NCBI GenBank assembly: GCA_040954595.2
Contig: CM082588.2
Location: 4,714,156-4,778,155 of the forward strand
DNA: 64,000 nt
From: Balanoglossus misakiensis
Taxonomy: Eukaryota; Animalia; Hemichordata
Direction of reading: 5' to 3'
The notes under the pieces are model-generated. The model made no database searches. It was given only the letters and a program-made list of their open reading frames with translations, and was not told the origin of the DNA. Below are positions 28,029-64,000 of the stretch, piece by piece; within the stretch, counting starts at the first letter, position 1; each line of letters begins with the position of its first letter. Both the position numbers and the translations under genes were made by a program.

Positions 28029-28335
28029 TATACCAGTATATTGATGGTGTAAATCACGCTATTTGATTGGTCGAGACACGACACGTGACCGTGATATATT
28101 AGCCATATACCACAGTCATATATCATAGTTAAAGAAAATGCCTTTTTAAAATGTTTTATGCAAAGTTTCAATATACTGGCATAATATAATAGCAATAAAA
28201 CACCCCCAGCCATGGTATACCACTCGATTTTGACCAGTTCAACTCCATATACGCACTCGCTATCGCTCGTGCGTATATGTCGTGAACTGGTCAAAATCTC
28301 GTGATATACCATGGCTGGGGGTGTTTTATTGCTTA
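28029..28335. mobile_element. Non-autonomous foldback element with a 16-bp inverted repeat and a 143-bp terminal hairpin
   Basis: TATACCAGTATATTGA (28029-28044) is inverted at 28168-28183 with one mismatch. The hairpin at 28191-28333 has 29 perfectly paired outer bases. CpG-rich compared with the surrounding intron. Confidence 0.7.
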
Positions 28336-41008: not shown

Positions 41009-41152
41009 TAGACTAAAGGCCAAATTTTAAGGCAACTACAAGTACATGTACTGAAATATATTTCACAAAATACTGACATATTTAATTAATACTAATTAAA
41101 ATATTTCAATATGTTGTACTTGCAGTATATTTCAAATTTGGCCTACAGTCTA
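41009..41152. repeat. Degenerate inverted repeat (old MITE-like foldback)
   Basis: TAGACTAAAGGCCAAATTTTAA...AAGTACA...TGAAATAT is mirrored by ATATTTCA...TGTACTT...TTCAAATTTGGCCTACAGTCTA. Confidence 0.6.
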
Positions 41153-42082: not shown

Positions 42083-42161
42083 CAGCTGACAAGTGAGTTT
42101 GTCTTGTTTTGTTTTTCACTTGTCAGTGAAAAAACAACAAGACAAACTCAGTTGTCAACTG
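42083..42161. repeat. Near-perfect 79-nt hairpin
   Basis: CAGCTGACAAGTGAGTTTGTCTTGTTTTGTTTTTCACT-TGTC-AGTGAAAAAACAACAAGACAAACTCAGTTGTCAACTG. Confidence 0.8.
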
Positions 42162-42371: not shown

Positions 42372-43919
42372 TTAATGTACCCAGCTCTGCGTTACGGTGG
42401 GCGTGCTGCTGTTAGTTGAAGTAAATCCTATATTCATGGCCATGTTGGCATTATTTCCATCAAGATTGAAGTCCATTCCTCCAGTGTCGCCTATATCTGG
42501 CTCGTTGCGAATTATACTATCCACATCGCAGTCAAAGCCACCGTTGAACATGTCCAACTCGAGATCGCTGGGGAACCTGTCGTGCATGTTTGTGAGCTGG
42601 TCCGTTGACAGCGGCATGTTTTGTAGCGCGCCCGGGTACTGACGGAGTGACTGCAGCGGGGGCAGGGTCTGAAACTGTTGCTGCTGCTGCTGCTGTTGTT
42701 GTTGGTGTTGCTGTAGCAGTTGTTGTTGTTGTTGCTGTTGTTGTTGTTGTTGTGTGGAGTTGTTGCCCATCAGCTGTGCCAGCAGGCGGCTGTGTTGTTG
42801 TTGTTGCTGTTGCTGGGGTTGTTGCTGCTGCTGCGGTGGTTGTTGCTGCTGGAATGATTGCACTGGGTTGCTGCCATTCCCCAAGCCCATCGGGTTGGCG
42901 CCGGCCAGGGAATTCAGGTGCAGCAGCCGGGCGGCGTTGAACTTCTGCTCGCGGGTCATGGACAACAGCGACTCCTGCAGCGACAGCGAGTTGTCGCGGA
43001 TCGGTGCCTGCGACAGCATCGGGTCCTGCTGGGTCAGCATGGCGTCGTTCAGCTGGACTGGCGATGACTGCTGCAGGCTGGGCATGCCCAGCATGGGATT
43101 CTCCGATATTGTGTTGAGCGGCGGCGACGTCTGAACCCCTTGGTTCAGCGACAGGCTGCCGGGCTGAACGCTGAACTGTCCGCCGAACGACAACCCCGAA
43201 TTGGAGAGCGTCGAGGTCTGCTGCGGGGCGAAGCTCTGCGCCTGTGTGGACAGGGTGAACGTGTTCCCCGTCTGGTTGGTGTACAGCCCCTGGGTCTGTG
43301 CCTGCGGTTCTTGCATTTGCATCTGGGGTGACATGACCGGTGACATGGTCATCTGCTCCAGCCCGATAGTATCCGGGGCGTTCAGATTCATGGTTTCGGC
43401 CAGCGCGTTGGTCAACTGGTCTGTGGTTTGGCGGAGGAGTTCTGACCCGGAGTACGAGGTCACGGGAATAGCACTACTCCAGTCCAGCGGGGATGGCGAC
43501 ATCGGAGGCACTTCGTTGTCGTGCATGTCGTCGATGTCGTTGGCCATGATGGGGGACAGGCGACCACAGCTGCTGGCGTTCGAGCTGGTGCGCGGCCGGA
43601 AATCTGGGCTCAGTTGGAACGCTGGCAGCGGCGACTCGGCCCCCATGATATCGCTGCCGTCCGGCGTCTGCGGGCTCCACTTGGATCGGTCGCCAGAGGC
43701 GGCGAGTTTCGCGGCCAGCTCGGCGGCCTTCTTTTTGGCACGACCGCGTTTCTTCTCGAACTGTTTGTTGCTGGTGTCCATACTGACAGCTCGGCGTCTT
43801 GACGACTTGCCAGTTTTGGTGGCGTCCGGGTTGATCATCCACCACGAGCTTTTGCCAGTGCCTTCATTTTGCACGCGCACAAATCGCTGGTGGAGCGACA
43901 GATTATGCCGGATGGAGTT
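42372..43919 (-). CDS. FoxO: FoxO coding exon 2 (515 aa + stop; total protein 638 aa)
   Basis: TTTCAG|AAC acceptor; NSIRHNLSLH recognition helix, RRRAVS (Akt site 2), RPRTSS (Akt site 3), poly-Q tract, FDCDVDSII/DFNLD CR3-type transactivation motif, ends SWVH-TAA. Intron 43920-44367 is 448 bp. Confidence 0.97.
   Translation of the reverse strand, partial: NSIRHNLSLHQRFVRVQNEGTGKSSWWMINPDATKTGKSSRRRAVSMDTSNKQFEKKRGRAKKKAAELAAKLAASGDRSKWSPQTPDGSDIMGAESPLPAFQLSPDFRPRTSSNASSCGRLSPIMANDIDDMHDNEVPPMSPSPLDWSSAIPVTSYSGSELLRQTTDQLTNALAETMNLNAPDTIGLEQMTMSPVMSPQMQMQEPQAQTQGLYTNQTGNTFTLSTQAQSFAPQQTSTLSNSGLSFGGQFSVQPGSLSLNQGVQTSPPLNTISENPMLGMPSLQQSSPVQLNDAMLTQQDPMLSQAPIRDNSLSLQESLLSMTREQKFNAARLLHLNSLAGANPMGLGNGSNPVQSFQQQQPPQQQQQPQQQQQQQHSRLLAQLMGNNSTQQQQQQQQQQQLLQQHQQQQQQQQQQFQTLPPLQSLRQYPGALQNMPLSTDQLTNMHDRFPSDLELDMFNGGFDCDVDSIIRNEPDIGDTGGMDFNLDGNNANMAMNIGFTSTNSSTPTVTQSWVH
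42676..42849 (-). repeat. Mixed CAG/CAA poly-glutamine tract within FoxO exon 2
   Basis: Runs of tgc/tgt/ttg triplets on the + strand encode several Q runs in the FoxO frame. Confidence 0.9.
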
Positions 43920-44367
43920 CTGAAATAAATCCAGGGAGGGAAAGTTTGATTGTATTTGCTGGATTACGACGTGACGCACGCATTTAACATGCAGATCAAG
44001 AAAACAAACAATCGCGCGATCGGTGGAAAAGTTGTGCATTGTGCAAAATATGCACGCACATCATGTCGATTTCACGTCCGCGTCTTACGGGGGAATGTTT
44101 ATTGTTTCCGTTACTGTGATCGGATTTCAACGACAACTTGAAATCGACATGAAGTTTACGTGAACTCGGCACGACTGTGGTCAAAATGGCGGCTAGTTAC
44201 CATATCTCAGGTTACCTATTCATGAGATGTCAATAAGTTATGGAACACACCATGCAAATGTCACTATGATCATATAGCGTCGTCGCGTCGGCTGATTTAA
44301 GAACAATTAATGTGTGAATCACCGATTCACACCTCGGCCAGACGCTCTAATTGAAAACAATGCTTAC

Positions 44368-44736
44368 CTTCCAGCCCGCAGAACTGTTGCTGTCACCTTT
44401 ATCTTTGAAGTAGGGGACATTTTTGACCATCCATTCGTAAATTTGTGATAGGGTCAACCGCTTGTCCGGGGCACTCTCGATAGCTTTGGTGATCAGATCG
44501 GCGTACGATAGATTTCCCCACGCGTTTCTCCTCGAAGAATTCTTTCGGCTCGGCGTGCTTTGATCCGGTTTGATGTCTGCATTTTCCTGTGCAGTTTCCA
44601 GTTCAGGTGTCGGCTGATCGGACGAAGGTGGCGACGGCTTCTGGATGGAGAAATCAGGTCGGGGGAGGGGCCATGTGCAAGATCGCGGACGACTCTGCGG
44701 CTCGAAGTCGGGATCTATCTCCGGTATTTCTGCCAT
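44368..44736 (-). CDS. FoxO: FoxO forkhead transcription factor, coding exon 1 (123 codons)
   Basis: [23 protein letters not shown] (Akt site 1), then [55 protein letters not shown]. Ends at a phase-0 AAG|GTAAGC donor at the WK/NSIRH junction typical of FoxO genes. Confidence 0.97.
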
Positions 44737-44963
44737 TTTCGCGCTGAAACTGCTCCGATTACATGTACCGATGTCTCCCGTAAGTCAACACACACGTGCG
44801 AACGAGTAACTCTGCGAGAAATAGGGAACCTGGCGTCAGTTACACTAGATAGTCAACTCTGCATTTCAGCTAGAAATATCTCTACTTCGATGCAGGCTAA
44901 ATCGATGCCAGGGTAAAACGTATATAATGAACACAGTATGCATTTATCTGCATATTGTATCGA

Positions 44964-45136
44964 TGACGTAGTGAGGTTGCCACAGGTCATGGTGCTGGTC
45001 GATTGACCAATCACAGCTCGAGCTTTCTAATCAATTATCCCGTGACCATTGATTTTATCGACCATTACGTCAAATAACTGCCAATCATTTACCAGCTGAT
45101 CCAATGGTGTCCACGATCCGGCTCACGTGCCACGTG
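44964..45136 (-). promoter_or_regulatory. FoxO proximal promoter with blocks conserved in the paralog
   Basis: TGACGTAG (44964), CACAGGTCATGGT (44981-44993), CCAAT box, a 47-bp block at 45028-45074 ending in TTACGTCA, and tandem CACGTG E-boxes (45124-45136). Most of these recur upstream of the paralog. Confidence 0.65.
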
Positions 45137-45850
45137 CCAATAATATACACCCAGCCCACCGAGGGCCTCGCTGGATCTGGCACCGCAAATGAACTGCAAA
45201 AACCTACAGGCCAATCTACTACACTAGATTTACTTTCGAAGGAAAATAGTCGCTATAGCGATAGTCTTAATGTTCATTTGGACAATCATATGACGGGTCC
45301 GCCTTGTCACTTCATTCTGATAATGTTTTGTTTTGTGGTCAAGGCTTGGGTGACCGCAAGCAGCGCAGATAATGAAGTTATGCAAATTACTCACATACGC
45401 TAAATAGCGAATGAGGGCGGTACACAGGATTTCCCGGGAAAACGAAATGCACATGCAACCCTTGTTTTGGCTCCGTGCCAAAGATTGTGTGTGCGCGACT
45501 GGACATAAACACTACGCACATGTTCATTTCATTTCCACAATTACTACGATATTGTATCCATATACCCCATTGAAATTGACAATGTATCGAACTTTTTCGA
45601 CCAGAGACCATCTTTTGGAATGTCTTCTTGTGGACAGAACCACAGGAAATGTTCGAAGTTTACGACTACAGCTACTATAGGTAACAGTACACATATGCAC
45701 AAGTAATTATCAACCGGAAATACCTGACAATTTGCAACCCTGAACCATTTCACAAACAAAACAATGCTCGAAAGGAGTATTAGCCCAGTATTGCAATCGC
45801 CCATATCATGGTACCATGGTACCTTTCTAGTTGAAAACACAACAAGATGC

Positions 45851-45853
<3 letters not shown>

Positions 45854-45902
<49 letters not shown>

Positions 45903-45968
45903 GTCATCATCATCATCATCATCATCATCTTCATCATCATCCTCCTCATCGTCGTCGTCATTATCATC
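45854..45968. repeat. (CAT)n microsatellite upstream of FoxO
   Basis: Visible; produces the spurious poly-H/S/D ORFs. Confidence 0.95.
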
Positions 45969-46620
45969 AGTTGGGAAGCAAGACTTCATAGCACCATATC
46001 GGTCGACTGAAAAAATGCAGGTCGATGCTACATAATCATGGATGAACCTACTATGCATACAAGAAACAAGCCCTCCGTGATGATGAAACAACTCAACATA
46101 CCTGAAGCTAGCTACTAGTAAAGCATTCCGTGAATGAGCTCTGTGATGACTCGAAACGTCTGCGTCGTGTTTCTGAGGTAGAATATTAAGAGGCGTAGTA
46201 AAAATCACTCTTACTACGACCGTGAAGAGACCACGTGATGTTGTTTACGACGCAACGCAGTTGCTGAGAAGTGTTACGTAACCCGTCTTTTAATTGATGT
46301 GTGACAATGGCTACTGTAATACACGCCCACCCACACCTGATATTTGCATGTGTTTCAAGAGAAGCAGACTGAAGTAGGTGGGGTTAGCAGATTTCTTGGT
46401 CGATTCACAGAATCCTGGTCGAGCCCCCACTGTCACTGTCAACACGACAGAATCACAGAATGGACACTCGTGTATTCAAAGAAAGCGGTTACACAACATC
46501 ATGACGCGTTCGGTCTTAATTCCCGGAGTTGATATCAATTGGATGAATTTTCATTTTCATGTAATACGAGACACATACGTAATTGCTTTCTTCAGAAAGC
46601 TTACGTTGTTTTCTGTCTGT

Positions 46621-46718
46621 CATCACTATCATCATCATCATCATCATCATCACCACCACCACCACCACAACTACCACCAACAACCACCACCACCATCGTC
46701 ATCGTCATATCGTCGTCA
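46621..46718. repeat. (CAT)n/(CAC)n degenerate microsatellite
   Basis: Visible trinucleotide run. Confidence 0.9.
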
Positions 46719-47620
46719 TGGTGACCACTTTTTGAAAATCGCCGTCCCGTCAATATTAATCTCTCTGATCACTATGGCGCTGGGTAGTACATGTATAGTT
46801 ATTTTCCCAACATCATCGTTATTTGCTATTCTGTAGGGAGAGTAAAACCACATTGGCATAGTTTATCCCTCGACCTTTCGTTGGCTGTGCGCATTGATCG
46901 ATGAGTGCGCTCAAGCGGGATGAAAGGGCTTGAATGAGGTTATGGTGCAGTGGTGGACACTTATGGTGGCGGTCATTGAACTCATAGTGGATCGATGTTG
47001 ACAGACTAGTGTGTGACACACTTTTTCACCGAATACTAAAATGCTCCTTCGCTTTCCATCAAAACTGTTGTTTAATCATAGATACTCAGCATACTAGTAG
47101 TGATATAACCTTCTAACAAACTCATTAATTAATCAATTTATTTTATTTATTTATTTATTTATTTGTTTGATTTATTTGTTTATTTTTAGACAAGTAGTTA
47201 GAAAATGATAATATAAGTAAAACTGACAAAATACTTGCACACCAATCAAACTTCTAGGCACCATTTTTCTTGCGTATAAGTTCGGCTATCATTAACCGCC
47301 GTCCAATTGGTATGAATTACACAGCATATAATGTTGAGTAACCGTGGACCAACTGTGTGATCGCAATTTACAAGGCCACACCACCACAGTCAGTGTAGAC
47401 ACCTGTAGCTTTTCTCAGATAGTAATCGGATTTAAATCGCCATATCTCGGCTGAGTAAAGTCACTAGTGCATGCATACCAAACACGGTAGCCTGTAGAAT
47501 TAGAACGTACTGCGATATACTCTGCGTGTGTCATCTAGATTATACAATTCAAATCCGATTACAGCATCTCAGAAATGTTGCAGGCTCCTGTATAAACAAC
47601 AGAACCGTCACATGTAACGA

Positions 47621-47667
47621 TGAACCCTTCACCACCTCGGACCAAACCATGGTGTTGGAAGGGTTAA
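47621..47667. mobile_element. Internally deleted copy of the same mini-MITE
   Basis: Reverse complement reads TTAACCCTTCCAACACCATGGTTTGGTCCGAGGTGGTGAAGGGTTCA and shares CACCATGGTTTGGTCCGA with 36301-36318. Confidence 0.55.
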
Positions 47668-49246
47668 ACATACATTAATTTGAATGATGCAGATTGTAAC
47701 ATCTTGATGTGTAGAACTGCTGGGAAGAATGTTACATTTGGGAAGATCAGGGTGCATATTTATAAATCAAATAACGCCATAAATTACTTAATACGTCCAA
47801 GTAGAAATTCAGGAGGCAGACAAACCTTCAAAAATAAAGGCGAATCTGGCCGGTAGAGGGCGTAAGAGTATTTGACGCCTCAGCTGCACGCCGCGATCGC
47901 TGTCATTCTTGCAATCACATCCCTGCTAAAATTGCAAAACCAAATTCGAAAGTTTCCTCGAATCATTAATTCACTTTGCATGAATGAATGAATACTTATC
48001 TACATCACTTCTTGCAATGCGCAGCGCCTTGTCCATCAGTACACCTGTGAACTTTTGACGAAGGAACTGGCCAATCAAATAAAGCCAATTTTACGAGATA
48101 CTTTCGCAAATCAGGTTCTTTCGCGTAACAATCCTTCTTCGAGCATGTGGTTGAACAATACTCAACCACTTATTCGATACATGTACGCACCATACAACTG
48201 TGAGGGTGGCATTCATACCTAGAAGATATCACCACAGACATTTCAGAAGTTTCGGGCAGTTACAAGTGCATCTTTTCGACCGATTCAGATCACCCTTGTG
48301 ACTGCCATATAAGCGACTTGCTTTCAAAACCCTTTTCATTTTCAAACGGTGGTCGATTTATTAGTTTATGAAAGGGTTTGTTTACGACTGCAGTAAACGC
48401 AGGTGTGTAGTTCCTTCTGCTGTAAATAGGACACTTGACAGGTAGCCTGGCAACGTGAATGTTTGTACATCGGGTGATTTATTTTTTTACAGACAGACGC
48501 TGGAACAGACCGAGTTTGGGTTGATCTTATCTCGCTTGTCGTGAGCAAAGTTTATGCTGTATGCCTACACCTGATCATGATATCGTTCTGCATTACAGGT
48601 TAAACCCGTGACTTCAGATCAAATAATCAAGTATACATTCGTATAAAAAACGATAACAAAACGAAAGAAAATGTCAAAAAATGTCAATGAAGTGAACGTT
48701 CAGAAAAAAATGAAACTAGTATCCATATGTAAAACTCAGAAAATGAATATTTATCTATTCATTTTTTATGCGGGATATTTAAAATGGTTCTGGGGTCCTT
48801 TAAATGTCGTGTCATGTCGAACTGAACATCTATAAAATTCGAGGCTTTGCATGGTGTGAATATAGGTACAATTGGACAAGATAAAGTTTATATCTGTATT
48901 TTTGTCATCTTCTAGACACCCATTGTGGGTTGTTATACATAAACACTCCTTCACTTGTCGCAAACATGATAATTTTAACACACTACGTTCGTTTTTTGTG
49001 CTTGATTGGTCGATAAAAGATTATGGTAAACTTTGTCGGTTTTGCCCCTTAAAGTCTGGATGAATCGACAGTCGGTCTTCGCCATTTCTCGGGTCAAATG
49101 TCACGTGAATAGTATATCGTGACTTTTTCAGAGATAATTGCTCAGTTTCAGGTCCGGCAAATAGATCCTAGCAGGCGATAATGGCGACATAGTTTGTACC
49201 TTGAATTCAGGGTCAACGTCCGGACTTAATAATCATTTTTGTCAAT

Positions 49247-49468
49247 TCATTTTTTTATCAATTCAAGACCAGTTTCTGCTTTTCCCATTTCGCCTTGTTT
49301 TCCTGGCGGCCGCGTTGATGCGTGTTTCGAAAGTCCGGAGCGACGTCGCATGGATTTGCCGTTTCTGGGAGCGTTCGGGTTGACGACCCACCACGAACTC
49401 CTGCCCGAGCCCTCGTTCTGTATGCGTTCAAAACGACCATGCAGCGTCAGGGTGTGTCGGATAGAGTT
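49247..49468 (-). CDS. Truncated FoxO paralog, exon 2 (73 aa + stop; total about 194 aa)
   Basis: TTTTTCAG|AAC acceptor; [31 protein letters not shown] completes the forkhead domain. After RRR a net 17-nt deletion shifts the frame into a ~30-aa novel tail ending at TGA. Confidence 0.82.
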
Positions 49469-49864
49469 CTGAAAAATGAAATCAAGATTTTTTAGATATT
49501 TCGATGGCAAAATCGAAACATGACACGATCGAGGTCAGCAGAAACTTTCTTTTGTGTATTTAGAAAATTACGTCAACTCTTTTTTCTGCATCACGACCTT
49601 CTTGACATTTTGATAACAGAAACTATGTACCTTGTAAACGAATAAATCGTGGCCAATATTTAAGAGTTCTGTGACTCCCACACGTCCGGGGTCAAACTGA
49701 CGGATCGTTTTTTTGTGTACTATTTGGCATTTGTCAATAAATTATAAAACGCTGTGTAATTTAATGCAACGAATCATAAACCCAGGCGTCGGTTTTCCAG
49801 TGTTGTGCATGTTAGAATTGTTCAGCCTAAAGTGGTCAACTTCCACCGTGCGAGTTAGCCTCAC

Positions 49865-50227
49865 CTTCCAACCTGACGAGCTGTTGCTATTTCCCTTGTC
49901 CTTGAAGTAAGGGATATTTCTAACCATCCATTCGTAGATTTGTGATAGAGTCAGGCGTCTGTCCGGAGCGCTTTGGATAGCTTTGGTGATCAAATCGGCG
50001 TAAGATAAATTTCCCCACGCGTTTCGCCTTGAATAGTTTTTCCGGGTGGGTGCAAATTGGTGTTGCCTGACGTCAACGGGGTTCTCCGGCAAAATCAGTG
50101 GCGGTGGTGGTCTGTACTCCGATATTGGCAGTTGGTTTGCGGGTGTTGACGGCTTCTGTGTGGAGAGATCCGGCAGTGACGGACGCATAGGGCATGTGCA
50201 GGATGGTGGGTGTCGTATAACTGCCAT
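49865..50227 (-). CDS. Truncated FoxO paralog, exon 1 (121 codons)
   Basis: ATG context homologous to the FoxO start (ctgccatattagcgc vs ctgccattttcgcgc on +). [13 protein letters not shown]...[55 protein letters not shown], then an AAG|GTGAGG donor at the same position and phase as in FoxO. Confidence 0.85.
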
Positions 50228-50409
50228 ATTAGCGCACATGATGCAAAAATAGACTCGATATGTACAGCTGTTAGCGACTACTGTGGTCCAGATGGGAATT
50301 CCAAGCAGCAAAGTTTGTGTGTGGCCAGCAGTTGAACCCGAACTCCGCAATGAATTCAAACTCAGAAACTCCGCTTTCGATAAACCTATCTATTTACGTG
50401 TCTCGGCTG

Positions 50410-50648
50410 TGACGTAGCATTGAAGGCAGTGTTCAGTTGTAAACTTTTGTCGGGATATGAACCAACACGATTAGTTTGACACAGGTCATGGTACGGACTT
50501 CTTACGTGTGGATCGATAACGTTTCGCGTTAATCAATTATCACATTGCCATTGATTTTATCAACCATTACGTCAAAGACCCGTCAGTCATTGACTGGGAA
50601 ACTACTGAATTCAGTTGTATGCCAGCATATCGTGCAGCAAGTCACGTG
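50410..50648 (-). promoter_or_regulatory. Paralog promoter, homologous to the FoxO promoter
   Basis: TGACGTAG (50410), CACAGGTCATGGT (50480-50492), a 47-bp block at 50530-50576 that is 42/47 identical to 45028-45074, and CACGTG at 50643. Confidence 0.65.
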
Positions 50649-50900
50649 TCACCCCGTGCTAAAGAGACAAGTCGCTATCTTTGGACAATGTTGTTTGATG
50701 AATCCAAATATTTAGCTTGTCCCGAACTCTACAATACTGGACAACGATTAACGACTTATACACTGCATGCAAACAGAAGAGACAAGAACTTCGGTGATAT
50801 TCATCCCGGATCATTTATTAGATCAGTTCGCCTCCACATCATCATGGCACCTCTCTCATCCCGAACACACTCTCATTTTGTATAACATTCAATACAGCCG

Positions 50901-50901
<1 letters not shown>

Positions 50902-50994
<93 letters not shown>
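50902..50994. repeat. Perfect (CAT)31 microsatellite upstream of the FoxO paralog
   Basis: Uninterrupted 93-bp CAT run. Confidence 0.95.
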
Positions 50995-51470
50995 TTGATT
51001 TATAAAAAAAAAAGAACGAGCAACCCCCAACAAGTGCTTTTTGCAGGGCGGGTTAAATTTGAGCAGTAGCGCGTCACCTAAAAGTACAACTCTAATTCTT
51101 TTGTTTTTATTAGTACGTGTAATACCATACCACGCTCTCTGCCGAGTTCCACCAGTCTAACCTAAAGGGGCGCTACAATTTACACGCATACGCCGTTTGG
51201 CCAAATTTCTCTGTCGGACAAGTTGGTTTGTACTTATAAAAAAGGGCGTACTACCTCTCAGAAATCAGAAAATAGACTTCATCACTAAAGTTGTGCATCT
51301 CTGTCGTTTCCTTAGAAGTGACCTATAGGACAGTGATGATATTACCCCTCATACCAGCAAGAAGTATTATCTGGCAGATCGAATACCATTGAAGCAATTC
51401 GAATAGCATGCACTGACACGGTAGCAATCGAGCGACCGTCACTCTTTGGCTAATTAATTTAGACCCGACA

Positions 51471-51720
51471 ATTCTGATTGGTCAAGGCTTCAGCACACTT
51501 GAAACGGGTACACCCAACACTTGTGATTGGTCAGTTACGCTGTGCACTCTTAAATTTAAATGTTTAGAGAAAGGTCAGAGATGCGGACAAACATTATAGG
51601 CCGGGTCAACAAACTTGTCTGGTGCCCCTGCGTTCCAAGAGTGCAGAACGTAACTGACCAATCACAAGCGCTGTGGTGTACCTGGTTCAGATGTGTTGAA
51701 AGTAATCGACCAATCAGAAT
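51471..51720. repeat. Inverted repeat with ~80-bp arms, each carrying two CCAAT boxes
   Basis: Arm 51471-51551 aligns with the reverse complement of 51637-51720 (ATTCTGATTGGTC...CTTGTGATTGGTCAGTTACG..TGCACTCTT). Confidence 0.75.
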
Positions 51721-52325
51721 AGCCGAGGTTCACCGCAAAGCCAGACATTTAAATTACATTGCCAGACAGTTTTCACCTGTTGGTGCAAAGATTCCTTTGG
51801 AAGGTCAACGAAATCAGGACACAGTTCTGACATACGCGGACAATATTCTCTGATAGGAATTTTTTAATGTCGCCACCAGCGACGAGTATTGCAAAAAAGC
51901 ACTCAAGAATATTAGTATGCAAAAGTATTGACGCCCCCAACAACATTTTGAACTTCGGCTCTCGCACGTTTGGGAGTTTTTGTTTGATTTTTTTTCATCT
52001 TTGGGCCGTTGATAAATATGTCCGAGCTGTTTTATATTGTTTTGCTTGAAGGAAAAATTACTCAAGAATGCCTGGCCGCACACCAGAGAAATAGCTGAGA
52101 AATTCAATAAACCTTGTGACGTAATCAAATGGTGACGTCATTAATTTAACGCACTTGTTCACAGCAACTTTGTGGGTTTTTTTTTCTCAAAAACCTCTGA
52201 AAACCTACACGCACATGTAGGCATAACAAAGAATTTACTTACTTTGTGACTAATATTTGTTCTCATCTCTAAACTCACCTATTTATACAACTGACAATCC
52301 ATTTTTTGCAACTTCAAAATACAAA

Positions 52326-52331
52326 TTTATT
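52326..52331 (-). terminator. Candidate TULP4 polyadenylation signal (3'UTR about 2.7 kb)
   Basis: tttatt on + at the end of a tract that is U-rich on - and CpG-poor, running from the TULP4 stop; followed on - by a GT-rich stretch. Confidence 0.5.
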
Positions 52332-55011
52332 TCTGGTATGACAGACTTACACGGTAAGCACCATTGAATACATCAAAATAGTCCATAAAAAGAAACATCC
52401 TGGGGGATATTAAACTTAAATCGCACAAACATACCGGTACATCTAATAAAATGACAGTTGATCTTTAAAAAACATGTAGGTATACATGTACGGTACACTG
52501 TATTGCATCATACCCAAATAATATGTCACGCATGGCTCTAATTTCGAAGAAAAGGGAAAAGTCATGCCATTCAACCACTGCTGTATGATGACACTGTTCT
52601 CGTCTGCGAGATTTGGATATAAAACTGTTCAGTTACCAGTGTGATAGCTTGGTTAGATTCTGTAGAACAAAAAAAAAATCACCAAGTGTTGCTTTTTCGG
52701 TTCTCTTTCATGATAAATAGAAAAAATATCCCAGTAATAAATATACATCTATGACCTCCAATCCACTTCCACGTAACCGCTACCTCCCCTACGTTGAAGA
52801 ATGGTTTCACCTGCCATTTAAAACAATACTTTCAAATGTATTTAGAGGAGTCAATAGTTTGATAATTTTTTTAAAAACACAAAAATAATGGACAATACCT
52901 AACTGGTACTTTCTGTGAAAATAATGCAACTCATGCCTTTTTGTTTTTAACAAAAAATCTTATATCTAAAATTTCACAGTAGTCATATGTACATACTAAC
53001 TACAATGAAAAAGTCTTCTCGTATAGAGTGAGTTGAAATCATCCCTGTCGTTTTTCAAACACACAGCATACAAATCACCTCTGTCAACATTTCAAGCAGT
53101 AGGCTTGTTTTCTTTTTTTGCAAAATGTCTGAATTAAAAAAAATCTGAAATCACTGATTTTTTTCAGAAGCATTTCTGTAACTAGCTGAGCTGTAATGAA
53201 AATCTATGATGACTGTGGACAAAACTTGAAGAATCCCTCAGTCTTCTGTTCGTTAAATAAAATATTCTGCATACATGCAGTTTTCTTTCTTTCAACCTAA
53301 GATAATGAAAGTACCTCCAAGATCTGATCAGGGTTTCCACAAATATAAAAAAAAACATCACAGAGATCATGGTAAATTCATCCGAAAAAATAAAACAAGT
53401 TTACAGATTCAGCACTCTTACCAGACAATAATAGGTACAAGATTTTCACTTTTTACATGTAGTTCATCAATAAAAACTGTATCTTACATTTTAGAACTCT
53501 ACTACATGGTGAAAATAAAATCTGACATCGCACAAAGCAAGACACACTCTCTCCATCAGCCTCAAAGTCATGAAAGCTATAAAAAAGTCACTGAGAACAA
53601 AAAAAAATGTTTTGAGGTTGGATGGAGAACAAGCACAATTTAAATAAATAACAGAAAATGAGATTCAAAAAATAAATATCTTTTGTCTTAAATAAACTCA
53701 TAGAGTTGTGAGATTGAAATATATATAGAGAGAATTCTTGGCACACGACATAGTTTTTGTCAATTTCAGACTTTAAAGCTACAAACTTGACATCTTTCTG
53801 TAATATTTTGATAAATATGACTGAGTTCAACCAGATGTACTGGTTCTGTAATCACACAACAAGTGACATGATTTTCATTTTTTTATAACTTCGACATTAA
53901 ATTTGAATTGAATTGTGATATCCCTGGTTTTCATTTGCATTTATACAGACTTTTCCACATGATACTGTTTTTTTTTTTTTACAATGATACGCTTAAAGTT
54001 TGATCAAATGTCCACTGGATGGTTCCATGATTGAACTTGACATTGGTAAATGCGAAAGTACTACACGTGTCAGACACAATGAGTGAGGAAACGGACTTGA
54101 CAGGATTACACATGGCAGTGAAGGTACAGAGCATGGCAGTTTAGCAGTGCATGCAAAACACAGGTCAGAGATTTGCAGAGTTCTACAGGTTTGTGATTTT
54201 TCATGCCAACAAGTTCTATTGCACACTGGTTTTATATAATAAAATGTTGACACATGTCCACGTTTTGTACATGTATATCACATGTATATCCACTTACTGA
54301 AAACGCACTAGTTCAAACGGACAACATACACATTGTGTATTACAGTGACTTAGTGGTCACGGCCACCTCTGTGTCACATAAAACCTTCTGTCACAGCATT
54401 CCTTACGTGTGACATACGACATCAAATGTCACACGACATGTGTTAATGAACTTAATTTTATATTTTTCAACAGGAGACTTATTATTATCAGCGCCAACTC
54501 CGGCGAAGTGTCCACTATACACAGTCACAGACACCTTTCCAGAAAGTTTTCTGTCACTGACAGCCACCGTCCCACTTTACAACACAGAGGGCCGTGAATC
54601 ACAATGAGCTGTATACCACTATAAAGTTTATCTCACATTGCAATCATTTACTCTGTAAAGATATTCTGCTAGTGAGTGACACTTTGAACATTTTCAAAGC
54701 AGTACTGGTATAACAAACACACCAACAGTGGCCCTGTCTTTACAAGTAATCAACTGTGAGATAATTTAATATGAAATATTACAACACAATCCCCACATAT
54801 GAATAAGCAATTTAAAAAATTCATCAGATCAACGTTCTCTAAATCACGTGTTTAAGAAACCAATCTGTGAAGTTCAGGTTTAATTGGTATGAGATATGCC
54901 CTACCACCCCTGACACTTTGGGGAATGGACTGTTCCATCGCAAGAAGCGAACAGGATTATTCCAAGCTGCACAGAACACAGGGGGTCGCTGGGTGTCAGT
55001 AGCTAGCGTTT

Positions 55012-55128
55012 TCACTTGAGCCTCTGAGTCACATTGGCCAGAGCCACTGCAAATGCTTGTAGAGTTGAGAACGGGTACTGGAAATCTAACGTGTAGGCCA
55101 TACCGTCGATCCTTCCAAACTGCATGAC
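55012..55128 (-). CDS. TULP4: TULP4 last coding exon (C-terminal tubby domain)
   Basis: VMQFGRIDGMAYTLDFQYPFSTLQAFAVALANVTQRLK-TGA; TCTTCAG acceptor. Confidence 0.95.
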   Translation of the reverse strand, partial: VMQFGRIDGMAYTLDFQYPFSTLQAFAVALANVTQRLK

Positions 55129-55489
55129 CTGAAGACACACAATGACAAGACACGATAGTTTCAGACAACGATTAGGACAGAGATCATTTTTTCGAGGCAT
55201 GATCACAGGAAAAGAGCCCTGTTCAAAACAATGCACAGTGATGTTTTTGAGGATGGCAGGGTTGTAGACGAGTACCATTAAACTCCATTGAAAACACATG
55301 TGGGTCATTTGATTGGATGATGATTGACACAAGCAGCCAATAAGCGTTGCTGTTACATATACAGTACAACTCAAAAAGAACATGACTGCTTGTAACTCCC
55401 TACAATCATGGACACTTTCTCATTCTAACACTAACATGACACAGTTAATAATGCACACACATTGTACGTACACAAGAAGGACAGCTCAC

Positions 55490-56685
55490 CTGTTTTCCGT
55501 GAAGCTCAATTTGGAAATTCTTGGCCGACTCCTGGGTGACCCTGCCGCCAAAATCCAACTGATAGACCTGCGTGTTCTCATTCCAAAGCGGGGCTTTATT
55601 GTGCATGACAAAAACCCTGGTTTGGCAGCCTTCGTTCCACATTTTCTTCATCTTGCGACGCGATCGACTGGCCACTGGCGATTCGTCGCTACTGACCGCC
55701 TCCCCATCGCTCTCCGAACTGTCCGCACTCTTTGCATTCTTGAGTTTGGCTGCTACGAGTTTACTCCTGACCGTTACATCTTCCTTGCGACATTTAATAC
55801 TCCCCAAGTCGCCGGCTGGTCTATTTGATTTTGAGTCCCCTCGATTCATAAGTCCCGATTTCGCCTTCGTGAATCGAGTCCTACCTCCTTCGCTCAAAGC
55901 ACCCGGTGATTTCTCTCGAACTTTCCCAGCTCGGTCTTTCGAACCGCGTTGTCGGGTGGGCGTCTCGCAATCGGCACTGTCTGCACTCTGCGATCTGGCG
56001 AAATCCCCCGGGGCTGGCTTGTCTACAGCTCGGGGCGCACTTCGGTTATGACCGTCTCGCACGACCAACCCAGCCGCGTGCGCGTTATTCGCTGCCGTGC
56101 TCGCTGAACCGTTCAGGACGCCGTCGCTGCCAAACGCGGTGAGATACGCAGCATCCGGCGACACGTCCAACTGAGCCGACACTTGCTCGTTCTGCAGCAG
56201 TCGGCACGCGCTGTCCGCCCACCGCGGTAAATTCATCTCCAGGCCGTCCACCGCCTCGTCGTTGTAGTTTCTGTAATCGATCGGGATCACGTCGTCGAAC
56301 GATGCAACAGGCTCTTTTTTCCGCGGTGACCCGAGACTTCTGTCTCTACTCTGCTCGCCGCTCTTTCGCCGGTGTTTCCTCGACTTAGGAATTGCACCCT
56401 GGCGCTCAAACGTGGATTTCTCGTGGACGTTCTTGGGCGAGTTGTTGGCCGATTCGGCGCTATCAGCCTTCGCGGCTTCTTCAACAGCACCTCTCCTCGC
56501 CCTCTCCGTTCCGTGATCGCTGTCTTCGTCCTGCAGCTGGAACTCTGCCATCTGATTGGTCAGCCTGTCTCTGCTGATTGGGGAGGTCGGGCTGTGATTG
56601 GTTGAACCAACTGGCGCCACAATAGCAGCGGCGGCTATGCTCTCAGCTGTTACTTGCGCCGAGCTCTCGTCTTGAGCAAGTGGAC
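55490..56685 (-). CDS. TULP4: TULP4 large exon (disordered linker and start of the tubby domain)
   Basis: Ends FVMHNKAPLWNENTQVYQLDFGGRVTQESAKNFQIELHGKQ|GTGAGC; 1196 bp, phase 1/0. Confidence 0.92.
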
Positions 56686-56847
56686 CTGTGATAATTGGAA
56701 AGGTGTACAGCACATCAATGTCCAGTATCCTGACATAGCCATAAACATACAGTTTCTATCATAAAGTTACACTCGACATCCACTGAGAACTCAACATCAA
56801 ACATATCATGTACGTGAAAGTACAGAAAACAGACAAGGACATCTTAC

Positions 56848-57082
56848 CTGGGCTGTCTTCTTCATCTTCACTGAACATGCTGGAATTGAAGTTGATGTCC
56901 ACCTGGGTGTTCATGTCGGGCCTCAGTTCCGGCAGGATGATCGTCATCTGCCTGGGCTGCAGGTGGAGCAGGCTAGTCTTGTAGTTGATAGCACCCAGAT
57001 TGGCCGGCAGATAAGGCGGGACGCCGTGGATTTTGAACTTGGTGCCCCAGATGTTGGATGTGACTTCCACTAGTCGATTGTC
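56848..57082 (-). CDS. TULP4: TULP4 exon
   Basis: DNRLVEVTSNIWGTKFKIHG...LPANLGAINYKTSLLHLQPRQMTI; 235 bp, phase 0/1. Confidence 0.93.
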
Positions 57083-57290
57083 CTGCGGAAAAAAAGATGG
57101 ATGTGTAAATCTGAACTGGTTGATATTTTGACAGACTATAGTGCTTCCATGTACCTCATGAAAACCGAAACCTCACAAATATTCTCCATACGACTCAGCA
57201 AATCATCTCCACAGATAAGATAGCATCTAACTTGGGTTCTCAAACTCACTCAAAGCACACCCACTGAATATTCACAGCAGAATAGAATAC

Positions 57291-57523
57291 CTCTGGTAAC
57301 TGTTCCACGTATGGACTTCCCCCATCCTTCTCTTTCAGTTTCGGCGATTCCCTCCCTCCTTCCTTCAGCTTGGGTTTGTACTTCTTCTTTTTGTGCTTCT
57401 TGCGCTTTCGTCGCGGAGACGGTTTGGGCGATTCGTTGTTCTCGCTGTCGGATATCTCGGACACGCTGCTGCTACTGCTGCTGCTGGAGATGCTGGCTGT
57501 GGCATGGTCATCTTCTATACCAC
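57291..57523 (-). CDS. TULP4: TULP4 exon (Ser-rich, basic NLS-like stretch)
   Basis: GGIEDDH...SSSSSSSS...RRKRKKHKKKKYK...YVEQLPE; 233 bp, phase 1/0. Confidence 0.85.
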
Positions 57524-57648
57524 CTGTTGGCAAAAAGAAAGACTGACTGATGAATTTTCATTAACTCTGACTCATTATTATTGTTGAACACAAACCAGTA
57601 CTTTTTTCAGATGCACATACAACCAAATTATGATGACAATTATCTTAC

Positions 57649-57831
57649 CTGGCTTACTGGTGGTAACTGTCGGGTCATAAATCACAAATTCCGGTCTCAG
57701 TTTGCTGACTCGTTTCCCCTTCAATAAGGGGACAAGACCCCCTAGGTATTCAAGAAACAATGTATAGCAGGGGCTTGAGGAGCTGGAGTCATCACCAGTC
57801 CGAATCATGGTACAGTGTAGTCGTTCATTCC
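57649..57831 (-). CDS. TULP4: TULP4 exon
   Basis: (G)NERLHCTMIRT...YTLFLEYLGGLVPLLKGKRVSKLRPEFVIYDP, a TULP4 signature; 183 bp, phase 1/1. Confidence 0.93.
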
Positions 57832-58374
57832 CTGAGAATACACAAATATGGTAGATCGCACATTAATACGTTAACTGTATAATACATATGGTCACCTTTA
57901 GAGTTATCATGGTAGAGAATTTACTTGTGTTGTCTCTATTTTGCGTGATAGGTTAGAGATGATATGATTACACTTATCTTAGGAATTATCAAGCCAACAA
58001 AGAAATAAGCGAGAGGGTTGGATTACTATAATCAACAATTTGGCTGGCTAGTTTGCTGCCCAGATAATTCACAAGATAATTGTAATGAAACACTATGGTT
58101 CAGTGGTTTCCCATGCATGGCCTTACTGATGCCAATCTTGTAAGTATTAACATGAAAACAAGCCTGTAATACAATGTAGAGCATACTGTTGTTGCAAGCA
58201 AAATATAACTGGTATTTTATTTTTCAGTGGTGATATGAAAATGTGTTTATCTAGGTCTCTTTCCATGGCTACATTGGCATAGGTGGCCATGTAGCTTCAA
58301 GCATGATAACATTAATGACATCTCAAACGAAACATGATGAAAATGTTGAAAATGTCATCAACCTTGCGACAAAC

Positions 58375-58429
58375 CTGGGGGAGACTGGCTGACAAATTCC
58401 TTCAGTTTGGATGGATCAGGAATACATCC
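58375..58429 (-). CDS. TULP4: TULP4 small exon (55 bp)
   Basis: GCIPDPSKLKEFVSQSPP(G); TTTTCCAG acceptor and GTTTGT donor; phase 0/1 joins both neighbouring exons in frame. Confidence 0.85.
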
Positions 58430-58700
58430 CTGGAAAACAAAACAAAAGAAATACAAATATTTTGAAAGATACGCATAAAGTATTGTGTGCTATAGTCATT
58501 TTCAAATCAGTTACATGTACATGTACGGTACTATTCTCACTAGTCAGTGACAATTCAAGTAAGCATCCATACACTATCTTAATTTTCCTTCTCTGATGTG
58601 GAAATGGATCAGTCAGTTTGTAGTTTTATAAGCAAAGCGTCATTCTACTCACACACCATACACAGGGGTATACCAGTAAGTAAATTTGACGAAAACCCAC

Positions 58701-58925
58701 CTTCACGGTTGGGGAAAACCTTTCCATGACGTAGTCTTTGATCCTGCTGGGCAGTGGTAACTTGGAAACGAGCTTGTCGTCCTTGGCGATAGTGGAGATG
58801 ATTTCTCGGCACAGCAACTGGAGTGGGGCCACTTTTCTCTGGATCCAAGCAACGTGTAAAATAGGACCACACGCAATGAAGAGTCTCTGGTCATTATGAC
58901 CCCATGCTAATGCTGTCACAGGTTT
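58701..58925 (-). CDS. TULP4: TULP4 exon containing the SOCS box
   Basis: KPVTALAWGHNDQRLFIACG...VAPLQLLCREII...KLPLPSRIKDYV (BC-box and LPLP of a SOCS box); 225 bp, phase 0/0. Confidence 0.92.
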
Positions 58926-59217
58926 CTATATATATGAAAGACAAAAAAAAATTCAATAACATTTTCGCTACTTAGGTAAGTGATAAAAATCTTGTGTGAT
59001 CAACAAAATTTCAAGATGGCGGATTTCTGCCATGTTTAATATAAAACTGTGCTATGTCAACATTTAATTACGAAAGGGGTATAATAATAGGATTATACAC
59101 AAAATACAGCCACATGTGGTGTGGATTCGCTTAATGTTCGTCCAATGCAGAGGGCTCTCGATGCTGGGATATTTTTTCTGTGTTTGGAAAAGAAAGCAAA
59201 CGTATGGCTGCCTTTAC

Positions 59218-59351
59218 CTGTGAAGGCATATGGAGTAGAAATCTCAGATATCCGTTGATGTTGTAAAACTTGACGACGCTAATCGTGCTGTTGGGTACTG
59301 TTCCACCGACGGCCAACATACTGCCGCAGTTACTCCATTCGATTTGGATGC
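59218..59351 (-). CDS. TULP4: TULP4 exon
   Basis: (G)IQIEWSNCGSMLAVGG...VKFYNINGYLRFLLHMPSQ; 134 bp, phase 1/0. Confidence 0.9.
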
Positions 59352-59520
59352 CTGTGAAAAAAAATGCATAAATAAATCAACTTTTTTGTACGTCACTTTC
59401 TCACGACTATATACTGTCATCTCATCATGTTTCTGTGGCGAAGTTGGACCATGTGTCCAGATGAGGAGGTAAGACATTCAGGTAAGGCCAAAAATGAATT
59501 CAATTAAAATATGTTCTCAC

Positions 59521-59649
59521 CTGTGAGCAACGTTCTGATCATTATCGGGGAAACGTCATCATAGGCCTTCATCAGCTGAATCAGTCCATCGCCAAGGTCT
59601 ATCGCCATGGTGTTGCCCTTCTTCCGACTTCTCTTCTTGCCACCCTCAC
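59521..59649 (-). CDS. TULP4: TULP4 exon (not in the ORF track)
   Basis: Read by hand: (S)EGGKKRSRKKGNTMAIDLGDGLIQLMKAYDDVSPIMIRTLLT(G); 129 bp, phase 1/1, AG/GT flanks. Confidence 0.88.
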
Positions 59650-59852
59650 CTGTAACAGTAACAGTAAAATACCAGTACGTGTTAGTAAGGTTTGTAATTT
59701 TTTTATCTTACTACCATTCACTGTTTTCATGTGTCCAGATAGAAATTTGACGTCACCTTACAGTGGGTTCTAGTATGACAAATGCCAAGATACAACTAAG
59801 TGCTTAGTGAAGCAAATCACAAAAGATTCTCTGAACTAAAAAGTTTTCTCAC

Positions 59853-60033
59853 TTTTTCTTTTCTTGTCATGCGATTCTTCGCTATCGCTGTCGGTCACGT
59901 TGATCATACGAAACTTCTCGCAGGACCACGTGATACTGTGGATCTCCCGATGTTCGGCCAGCGTGCACTGCGTAACCATGGCACCATGAACATCCATGAC
60001 GATGATCTGGCCGCCAGATGTCCCAAACAGCAC
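59853..60033 (-). CDS. TULP4: TULP4 exon (WD40 region)
   Basis: VLFGTSGGQIIVMDVHGAMV...ITWSCEKF; 181 bp, phase 0/1, GTGAGA donor. Confidence 0.9.
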
Positions 60034-61760
60034 CTGTGTGTTCAAAGAGAAATAATTATTACAGTTACACACACATATTTCTGTGTTCTGTGGCATTACA
60101 TAAAGTGGTTTGACAGAATTCCACAGTCACCTTCCAAGGTAAGTGTCTCCAATACTTCTGAGTGTATAACTCTACATGGCTCTATCCCATTTGCTAGAAG
60201 CCTTTCAGTGAAAACGTTGGTGCAAATATATCTTTGATATCAATTAAAATTCTACTGAGTGCATGAAAACATGACCAATTCCACAGAAATCACATCAATG
60301 TGAGAAATTTGAGGCACACACATAAATTTAATGATTTATTGAAACATAATTCCCCAAAGGAGACTGAGACTTTTTATTACTTCCCACTACTTCTTACTAC
60401 AGTTACATGTTAGCAATTCACAGTTTTAATGCTCTCTTTTCATTTTATAGCTGAAACAGTTTCTATAACAGTTCAGATGTCATATTAATATGTCATTAAA
60501 TACACTTCTGTTCTGTGTGTATAAACTGGTGTGTTCCTCAGATACCTGATTTGTTTGCAGAATTACTTTTGTACAGTATACAACATAACAGTTTTCCATT
60601 CCATAGATGGCTGATTATCTGTCAAAGTCTAGAACTGTCTTTAAAAAAAAGGCAAGATGAATCCCAATTAATATTCCATAAAATAATTCTTCCAGGCGTT
60701 TGGTCAGAAATTTGACATGATACCCAGAGGTTATACACATTACCCAATATGGACATGATGTTCATGACCTCTGCAGCCTTTTCAACAAATAGAAATACAC
60801 TGTAGTCTCTGGGCAGAGTTGAAAATAGTCCAGTCCCGCATCAAGCCCGGCCATAACATTCCTGTTTAAACATCACTCGAATAGTTCAATGTTCTATAAA
60901 ATTCGCGGAACAGCTCCAGATGTATGAAATCAGCCGCTGTTATTTTGCAGCGTTTTCTTAACAAGCACACAATGACACAGAGAGCTCAGCTGGAACCTAC
61001 TCAAACATCTAGCTGTTCCATTACTCCGTTGGCATAGCAACACACCTTACACACCGCACTCCGCTAGTCAGCAGAATTGTCCGGCTTCTTTTCAGAGCTA
61101 GGAATTAATTTACGATCAGTGTAAACTTGCACGTGGCTGTCTGCTTTCGCGGACTGAAAAACAACTTGGCAGGAAGTGTGCCGATTTCTCACACTGAAAT
61201 GCGGAGGTCATTTCGGCAAAAGATGATTTCTGTTTATCGTGTTCAAGAATTAAGATCTGCACTTCTGAGCACATTTGCTGTAAACGGTTCTGTGAAAGCG
61301 ACCTTGTAATTGAAAAACTCACAAAACAGAAAATCACCCTTTCAACATTACAGCTCATTGAGCTCAATAGATAGACTGACGGAGTACAAACTTGAGGATA
61401 TAAGAGGATTGGTTTTATACAGTGCTTAGTGCCATTAATTTTTCACAATGACATTTTACATCACCATGAGTAACAGAGGAGTGACCTTCATGCATACAAT
61501 CTGAAACATTAGCTGTGTTGTTTTTTGCTACCCGGCTATCATCTACACCCCAGATGCAATCATTTCTGAATGACACATCTTGAGAAGATTACGTCAGTAA
61601 CCATGAATGATCATAGGGATCACGGAGAAGCCCATATTAAAAGTCAAGTGATCGTTTATGTATGAGTATATCTACATTGTGTGTTTGAACGCACACTACG
61701 TAGAAATGTCAGTATCTAGATCTGAGACTGCAATACACCACATTGCAGCCATCCACCCAC

Positions 61761-61922
61761 CTGTTTATCGTCAGGGGTCCAAGCCCCGCACAGCAGTTTA
61801 CTCTCCAGATTCAGCACAGATGACCAGTAGCGCTGACCGGCCACAGATCCCACCAGGACAAAGCCATCCTTGTAGCAAATCAGGGCCATCCGGCCGTCGT
61901 GGCTCCAACCAAAGTCACTGAC
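61761..61922 (-). CDS. TULP4: TULP4 exon (WD40 region)
   Basis: VSDFGWSHDGRMALICYKDGFVLVGSVAGQRYWSS...AWTPDDKQ; 162 bp, phase 0/0. Confidence 0.93.
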
Positions 61923-62050
61923 CTGATAGAGAATGACCACACATACATAACTATTAAAGACCCTTACTTCTTGACATGGGCACTTCTAATAGAGGGTATA
62001 TTATTACTATACTCTTGAAGGCATTTACTATTAGACGAATCACAGCTTAC

Positions 62051-62179: not shown

Positions 62180-64000
62180 CTGCAAAAGAAACACTGCATG
62201 TCAGTTTTAAGGTAGTAGTTTGAACCAAAACATGCAAAAATCGGCCATCTTGAAATTGTGTCGACCGTATGGGATTTTCATCACTCACCTAGGTAGCAAA
62301 AATCTATTTAAAGTCAGTGAGAATTGGACATCAGATGTGCATGGTGCACTAATCCCTCGGCTGTAGCGAGGATTATTGATAATAATGTTGATTGAGTGTA
62401 AAAAGTCGAGGCTGAAAATAAATTCCCCGAGGATAGCAATCAGCAATATTGATATTTCTACATTTATAAACCGTGCACGTGTGTACTGTACTGTATACAT
62501 GTGCTGTGATGCTACAGGTAAAAAGAGCACTGTCTGCGAGCAATTTAACAAATCACGGATGAGTACTTGTACAGCGACGTAGACATATGCGAATTAAGTA
62601 CTTAGACGGAGCGACGTCGATTTAAACATCTGAACCACGGTTACTAGAAGAAGTAACCGTGTCTGAACTGACAGGACATATTGCGTTCAAATTACTCTGT
62701 GTGTACAACACTACACTGTACCTCAGGGGAGTTTTTACCTCAGACAAAATATAAGTTCATATGTATAGTGTACATGTTATGTAACACTGCATTGCGTTCG
62801 ACATCAAATTTTTATTTTGAAATAAATCAACATTTCACGTTGTTCGATGACAATTTAAGAGACTTAGTGGCTGATAGATGTGCTGCTAAACGTACCATCT
62901 ACCATTGGCTACAGCTACAACAATCTTTTCGTTTCATATGCATGCATTTATCTACATTTCATGATAGCAAAAGAAAGAAAGAAATTCTGAACTCAAGATA
63001 CACCCCTGTTGATTTCTAATTGGTTTGGCCTCAGGGTGTACCTAAAATGATTACTATCTAAAGAACCCCACAAGCAGTACGAAACCTTAAGGTTGGAATT
63101 AATTATGCTATAATTACACTATTGGAAACGCCATCCTGTCCAGACACACACAAGGCACACTACACATACACACACATTATACATAGGATGCGAGTGGATC
63201 AAACTGGTCTCAACCAGTCCTAGCCAGTTAGACGATATACCAGTCAAAACTGGTTAAATCTTTTTTTTTTTTTAAATTGATAATATATCTTTTAAATAAG
63301 TTTCTGGTGTTATTACATCACATATGAATTGAGCATGCAAAATGAAGTCTGCTTTTTTAAACATGGAAATCCAATATCGAATAGCCAAGTTATACACATT
63401 TGAAAATTAAAAATAGTGGCGTGCTTTTGGTCAAAATTTGAAAATATTATTCAATAATTCAATGTCAATATGCAGAATGGGAAGAAACATCCAATCCCCT
63501 TGGAACCATCTAGAAAGTGCTTTTGCAGATTAGTTCTTGCGTCACAAGAAGGATACAGAAATAAATCAAAGCACTGATCGAATGTTTACAGACATTGATA
63601 CTTACTGATAAATAAAAATGAGAATACAGGATGGCATATATATATCAAGTGTGTGATTAATGTGAAAGAAATTAATGGAAAAAAAAAATCTAGCAAAGCC
63701 AGTCAGACTGCAATGAGACAATATGATATCTTCTGAAAGATGGAGAGAAATGCCTTCTGGGTAAATATGTTAGAGATGAAATTTATAACTAGGACTGTAT
63801 TGAAGGACAGACCACTACAATACATCAATGGCTGCTGCGTGAGATGCAAAAGAATATCCGAAACAAGAAACTAAAGTTGACACAGAGATAAAAAATTGAA
63901 AAGACAGACAAAAGATACAGATACTTGAGCGTTAACAACAGTCACATTCGACAAACTCTTTATAAATATTTCAGCTCAGTGTATGTTTACAGCATTGACA

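Follow-up and report, generated by a model that had tools for sequence, protein, structure and literature searches.

Judged from its sequence, a short gene upstream of FoxO in the hemichordate Balanoglossus misakiensis is a real, old, selected and truncated FoxO duplicate, seen here in one species. Insulin signalling acts on transcription mainly through FoxO, in the control of growth, starvation and lifespan, and most studied invertebrates have one FoxO with three conserved Akt sites (PMC8805411, PMC7140813). Our preferred explanation, held tentatively, is that the copy is a live, Akt-insensitive, DNA-binding-domain-only competitor of FoxO. If true, it would be evolution's counterpart of a laboratory reagent and, unlike that reagent (the FoxO1 construct Delta256), would lie beyond Akt's off-switch. 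With it, one could then ask directly whether thresholds on conserved signalling outputs can be set by truncated duplicates. A dead gene would be just another late-stage duplicate.

All positions refer to the window, i.e., the whole 64,000-nt stretch of DNA that was analysed. The initial annotation described a two-exon copy of about 194 aa in the same orientation as FoxO, with intact GT/AG sites and a homologous ATG, and the sequence bears this out (Table 1). The copy occupies the minus strand upstream of the parent FoxO, and its 194 codons predict a product of 194 aa, about 22 kDa and pI 10.7. The annotated distance of 5.5 kb is right from ATG to ATG (5,491 nt, i.e., 5.49 kb), but the gap from the copy's stop to the FoxO ATG is 4.5 kb. 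The start codon is homologous, reading ATGGCAG in both genes, and there is a further in-frame ATG four codons upstream in the copy (50239). The copy's intron lies in phase 0 after GWK (between GWK and NSIRH), the same position and phase as the FoxO intron (44367-43920), and 49864/49469 was the sole GT..AG pair listed by a junction scan. Across the 164 homologous codons there are no stops or frameshifts, and the ATG, GT and AG are all intact. The parent FoxO (638 aa) is compact, with two coding exons and a single coding intron of 448 nt, so a tandem duplication of the promoter plus two exons would have been easy. In a sea urchin, about 28 kb lie between FoxO exons 1 and 2 (PMC11353378).

Table 1. 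Features of the short FoxO copy and of the parent FoxO, in window coordinates.
Feature	Position	Strand	Description
Upstream block 1 of copy	50530..50594	-	Matches FoxO 45028..45092; 83% over 65 nt, ungapped; blastn E 1.4e-11; 0/300 shuffles
Upstream block 2 of copy	50473..50492	-	Matches FoxO 44974-44993; 18/20 nt, contains TGACCT; 0/300 shuffles
Copy coding exon 1	49865..50227	-	121 codons: ATG, shortened N-terminus, linker, first forkhead half; Pfam Forkhead 45.3 bits
Degenerate Akt site 1	50189..50212	-	HPPSCTCP replaces RPRSCTWP; both arginines and the tryptophan gone
PPPLI in proline-rich in-frame insertion	50093..50107 (insertion 50093-50119)	-	Absent from FoxO; may be chance
Copy intron	49469..49864	-	396 nt, GT..AG, donor AAG/GTGAGG, acceptor ..TTTTTCAG/AAC (slash marks the junction)
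Copy exon 2	49247..49468	-	73 codons and stop
Exon 2, homologous part	49340..49468	-	43 codons: recognition helix, wing 1, wing 2 to RRR
Recognition-helix changes N to T and S to T (FOXO3 N213, S215 equivalents)	49445..49453	-	RHNLS to RHTLT
Non-homologous tail and stop	49247..49339	-	30 codons; without the Akt site 2 serine
Candidate poly(A) signals (AATAAA)	48478..48483 and 48357-48362	-	Nearest about 770 nt past the copy's stop; weak, hexamer common
Parent FoxO coding exon 1	44368..44736	-	123 codons
Parent FoxO coding exon 2	42372..43919	-	515 codons and stop; Akt sites 2 and 3, poly-Q, FOXO-TAD

By profile, structure and residue matches, the copy belongs to the FoxO class of forkhead genes without being a canonical Akt-regulated FoxO. 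Both of its exons match Pfam Forkhead (PF00250) and jointly span profile positions 4-83 of 88; exon 1 exceeds the cut-off (45.3 bits vs 27), while exon 2 alone falls under it (22.6 bits, E 1e-4). All 11 PDB matches of exon 2 at E<0.001 are FOXO1/3/4 or an unnamed forkhead, with other Fox classes reaching at most 23 bits vs 40-54 for FoxO. Against the two exons of the adjoining FoxO, the copy gives tblastn E-values of 5e-42 and 1e-20, far above chance, and 82 of 103 residues are identical. The best matches of the parent FoxO are amphioxus, crinoid and starfish proteins (36-53%), and in a tree of 32 rows echinoderms are nearest to it. In the same tree the copy's branch is about nine times as long as FoxO's, and its placement is left open by that long branch and by open forks. 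We therefore take the copy and FoxO to be sisters because the linker and the upstream blocks are common to both.

Those upstream blocks stand at similar places in the two genes, block 1 being 303 nt and 292 nt from the ATG. In both genes (50530-50594, 45028-45092) block 1 contains the words TGACGTAA, GATAA and AAATCAATGG, which we take to resemble bZIP, GATA and ONECUT sites. Block 1 is likely to be a promoter element, and the two conserved blocks together suggest co-regulation of the copy with FoxO. GTAAACA is absent from both upstream regions, each of which has two looser RYAAAYA-type matches.

Substitutions between the genes point to long constraint. A codon model of the 103 alignable forkhead-and-wing codons gave dS 1.43, dN 0.117 and omega 0.082 (likelihood interval about 0.04-0.15), an omega which, being pairwise, averages the whole history and cannot show present function. 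Neutrality is rejected (LRT p 2e-17; each exon significant alone), and the differences fall at 18 first, 10 second and 47 third codon positions. Amino-acid changes avoid invariant columns (5/56 invariant vs 11/31 variable, p 0.004) and are mostly conservative, e.g., four Lys-Arg and two Val-Ile exchanges. We considered whether the four Lys-Arg exchanges prove that the copy was selected, but one is probably on the FoxO side and another is ambiguous, which weakens the point. Two possible distortions were discarded: gene conversion left no tract (longest identical-codon run 5, permutation p 0.69), and there is no GC3 shift to inflate dS (0.58 vs 0.55; 0.67 vs 0.67). The copy's intron matches the FoxO intron no better than chance, 21/300 shuffles reaching its score. 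Two marks of a pseudogene, a disabling lesion and an omega near 1, were sought in the copy and both were absent. Given this pattern, the copy is neither a fresh nor a long-dead duplicate; its low omega and conserved upstream blocks imply, as our main result, that selection held promoter and forkhead alike through most of its history.

Constraint is uneven between the exons. Exon 2 has an omega of 0.15 vs 0.04 for exon 1 (difference p 0.003), and it is itself constrained (omega 0.11, p 2e-7). It shows 10 differences in 32 core residues, where the maximum among 36 other cores is 8, whereas exon 1, with 6 differences vs a mode of 5 among 171 cores, is as near FoxO as other FoxOs are. When changes are polarised, 13/17 lie on the copy's side.

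Every Akt consensus is gone from the copy, which has no RxRxxS/T motif where the 638-aa FoxO has three. At Akt site 1 the initial annotation had reported the loss of both arginines, and this is what we find; the ten codons immediately before the site are also missing in frame. RxRxxT occurs at this site in 295/314 fetched proteins with a long enough N-terminus. Akt site 2 had been called deleted: its Ser is indeed absent and the following 30 codons are unalignable, but RRR is kept, with Leu at the Ser position (S253, FOXO3 numbering) before homology ends. The minimal RRRS left in the copy might, we infer, serve other basophilic kinases. The reported absence of Akt site 3 and the transactivation region also stands, as Pfam finds FOXO-TAD (PF16676) in FoxO only and 14 FoxO queries, run at high sensitivity against the masked window, recovered no remnant of the missing 472 FoxO codons (best tblastn E 0.11). 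The 30-codon tail aligns with FoxO in no frame, 601/2000 shuffles reaching its best protein score and 171/1000 its DNA score. On the same shuffles, a frameshifted remnant of the FoxO KRGRAKKKA cluster (the other frame reads RGR..KA) is not significant, and a third exon restoring the C-terminus was rejected, the tail having no strong donor by eye and no downstream homology.

The place of the truncation fits retention of a binding module. Homology ends at RRR, which is the end of the DNA-binding domain and its last DNA-contacting cluster; in FOXO3a, losing the RRR cluster raises the Kd from 295 to 1178 nM (PMC2175300). A random break within 15 of 472 codons of the domain's end has about a 3% chance, calculated post hoc. 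Akt site 1 has lost 3/6 motif residues vs 5/56 invariant forkhead columns (p 0.024, with columns of our own choosing), so constraint on the forkhead seems to have outlived that on the Akt site. Loss of Akt site 1, the break at RRR and the intact frame are indirect indications that the truncated form itself was selected, but all three are compatible with death within the last 0.01 substitutions per site.

The initial annotation called the forkhead domain complete, and so it is, but two positions of the recognition helix that otherwise never vary have changed. The copy lacks the invariant FoxO helix NSIRHNLSLH. From 491 fetched proteins, a redundant set rich in vertebrates and insects, we took 292 helix-3 motifs and dropped 3 that were off-domain; of the remaining 289, all keep RHN, 287 keep RHNLS, and neither Thr occurs in any. 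The RHTLT helix is a natural experiment on two positions at which the fetched FoxOs do not vary. In FoxA and FoxE proteins, Ser and Thr are the natural residues here. In FOXO3 numbering, the copy keeps N208, R211, H212, R222, S232, W234, K245 and R248-250, and has Arg at K230 and K242, Leu at S253 and Thr at N213 and S215. Bases are read by N208, R211 and H212, while S215 makes contacts to a thymine methyl and to the backbone (PMC2175300, PMC8034652); the change from Ser to Thr retains the hydroxyl. FOXL2 N105S, the matching Asn-to-Ser change, is a disease allele with intermediate activity (PMC3958583). DNA binding is probably kept in the copy, in weakened or slightly shifted form. The helix-3 changes and the faster exon 2 may leave room for weaker or shifted binding, for recent decay or for use of exon 1 only.

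As a competitor of FoxO, the copy would have arisen by an old tandem duplication that took the FoxO promoter and the first one-and-a-bit exons, with purifying selection since. The common promoter blocks suggest that it would be transcribed together with FoxO. Because it has no 14-3-3 sites, the 194-residue protein would stay nuclear whatever insulin does, and its small size and kept RRR point the same way. It would be expected to bind GTAAACA-type sites and to compete there with full-length FoxO without activating, although the two helix-3 changes probably make its binding weaker than that of FoxO. A protein that sits on FoxO sites and recruits no activator would oblige FoxO to pass a threshold before targets respond. 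The predicted net effect is that basal FoxO output is damped and that, when insulin/Akt signalling falls, FoxO has a fixed threshold to overcome. We regard it as rather doubtful that a co-transcribed twin permanently on FoxO sites sets this threshold so as to turn the insulin-FoxO response into a switch, to which PPPLI could add active repression. That motif, which we presume to be like the SMRT/N-CoR motif bound by MYND domains, lies in an insertion (50093-50119) that apparently came from CCA slippage.

The same evidence of selection would equally fit a live truncated forkhead protein with a job of its own, whose helix-3 changes shift or weaken its site preference so that it does not compete with FoxO. 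Its job may involve other targets, chromatin opening or contacts with proteins, and may be limited to a particular cell type. For such a protein one can cite two near changes at invariant helix-3 positions, both to Thr, and an acceleration that is asymmetric, on the copy's side. However, N208, R211 and H212, which read the bases directly, are retained, the Ser-to-Thr change keeps its hydroxyl, and the common promoter blocks suggest expression overlapping that of FoxO. We consider this explanation unlikely.

It is distinctly unlikely, in our view, that the copy is a once functional and recently dead paralogue, perhaps once full length, which lost the rest of exon 2 at its 3' side and has an intact frame by luck. 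The invariant columns limit neutral time to roughly 0.04 substitutions per site, vs a dS of 1.4 over both branches, and in simulated neutral decay of 0.04 substitutions per site the start, splice sites and frame survive in 8-33% of cases, varying with the assumed indel rate. A shorter decay would often leave all of these intact, since survival is 54-86% at 0.005-0.01 substitutions per site (54-76% at 0.01). Recent death would also agree with the five changes at invariant columns, with the faster exon 2 and with helix-3 changes resembling a hypomorphic FOXL2 allele (PMC3958583). Most changes are conservative, though, and every linker length difference keeps the frame; the break at the domain's end and an Akt site 1 more decayed than the forkhead also speak against it.

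The contrast between the exons could have another cause: selection may act mainly on exon 1 of the copy, used as an alternative first exon which splices over 5.9 kb to FoxO exon 2 (49865 to 43919), with constraint on the exon 2 of the copy being relaxed. Nematode daf-16a/b has duplicated first forkhead halves as alternative first exons. Both ends of such a junction are in phase 0, exon 1 is within the FoxO range and exon 2 outside it, and omega differs between them. Yet constraint is also seen on exon 2, whose acceptor and pyrimidine tract are well preserved inside an unalignable intron, and the nearer acceptor and the candidate poly(A) signals come in between. We therefore judge this splicing improbable, and equally improbable its product, a full-length FoxO without Akt site 1 only. 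An assembly or haplotype artefact is very improbable: the copy is seen in a single window and an error could still touch the tail alone, but 47/103 third positions differ, unlike a mis-assembled allele, and the window contains no N.

Natural dominant-negative paralogues have a duplication origin, a kept binding module and a lost effector module, and the copy shows all three. The initial annotation compared it with FoxO1 Delta256, which has no transactivation domain and acts as a competitor of the endogenous FoxOs (PMC3072380, PMC2173790). The comparison is apt in that both have the N-terminus and forkhead, with homology ending where Delta256 ends, just after RRR. However, Delta256 is a construct in which helix 3 is wild-type and the Akt sites T24 and S253 are retained (PMC3072380), while the copy is a natural gene with no Akt consensus, two helix-3 changes and a new tail of 30 residues. 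With its two Akt sites, Delta256 is therefore not an exact model for the copy. In mouse AGRP neurons whose PDK1 was intact, Delta256 by itself had no phenotype (PMC3072380).

It is already known that truncated paralogues can serve as antagonists. Planarian beta-catenin4 is a duplication-born, C-terminally truncated paralogue that inhibits its full-length sibling; it belongs to another family and pathway, competes for the protein partner TCF rather than DNA, and has an experimentally established function (PMC5643146). Human FOXO3B is a lineage-specific, truncated, protein-coding FoxO paralogue, but it stops mid-forkhead, does not bind DNA and is cytoplasmic (PMC7140813, PMC10611805); the copy, by contrast, is in tandem, keeps the whole domain and the intron, and shows purifying selection. 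Vertebrate FOXO6 evolves fast, has lost part of its Akt control and is mostly nuclear, but it is missing just one Akt site plus the export signal (PMC7140813) and is a long protein for which Pfam FOXO-TAD is listed, where the copy lacks all three Akt sites and the transactivation domain. A natural N-terminal deletion variant of FOXO4 fails to transactivate and is described as dominant-negative, but it is a transcript variant of one gene with an N-terminal cut and no separate gene or promoter (PMC10611805).

A natural forkhead-only, Akt-site-free FoxO paralogue did not appear in the literature accessible to us, mostly papers outside subscription, and supplements of Fox catalogues could list a second foxO. 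The available portions of PMC9539403 and PMC7859237 contain nothing on a truncated FoxO. That invertebrates mostly have a single FoxO, as the initial annotation held, is reported for urchin, tunicate, amphioxus, fly and nematode (PMC8805411) and of Saccoglossus (PMC4077281; FoxO accession in PMC11353378), but some flatworms have expanded to three or four (bioRxiv 10.1101/2025.01.09.632129). The best 120 of 975 short matches and the best 120 of 1886 long matches included no orthologue of the copy (most of its length, >~60%), a weak blank because no close relative's FoxO was among the matches either. None of 80 metagenome loci, most only a few kb long, had two first exons in one locus.

Along the minus strand the order is a TULP4-like gene, the short FoxO copy and the parent FoxO. 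The TULP4-like gene (55012-61985; exons for a WD-propeller, SOCS box and Tub domain) has the same orientation and ends about 4.4 kb upstream of the copy's conserved upstream block. Window positions 1-42000 contain 98 stop-to-stop frames of 70 codons or more; two of them, both simple repeats, were left out, and none of the other 96 has a Pfam family above cut-off. These 42 kb downstream of FoxO may be poor in genes, or they may hold a gene whose exons are short. Rfam gave no match in 44000-56000. Short inverted repeats of 70-88% identity, probably MITE-like elements, lie at 28191-28333, 41009-41152, 42083-42161, 51471-51720 and 58961-59037 with 62228-62303, one of them about 200 nt past the FoxO stop.

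Some of the fetched proteins also depart from the usual FoxO form. P0241 and P0243 combine very high half-domain scores with a degenerate helix 3 (CSIRHNLYFS), have no Akt sites and end just after the domain; they are possibly repeated, intronless, decayed FoxO copies in another animal. P0490, P0445 and P0467 are FoxO-like and lack the first Akt consensus, and P0490 (367 aa) lacks the second too, so loss of Akt sites in FoxO paralogues may be recurrent.
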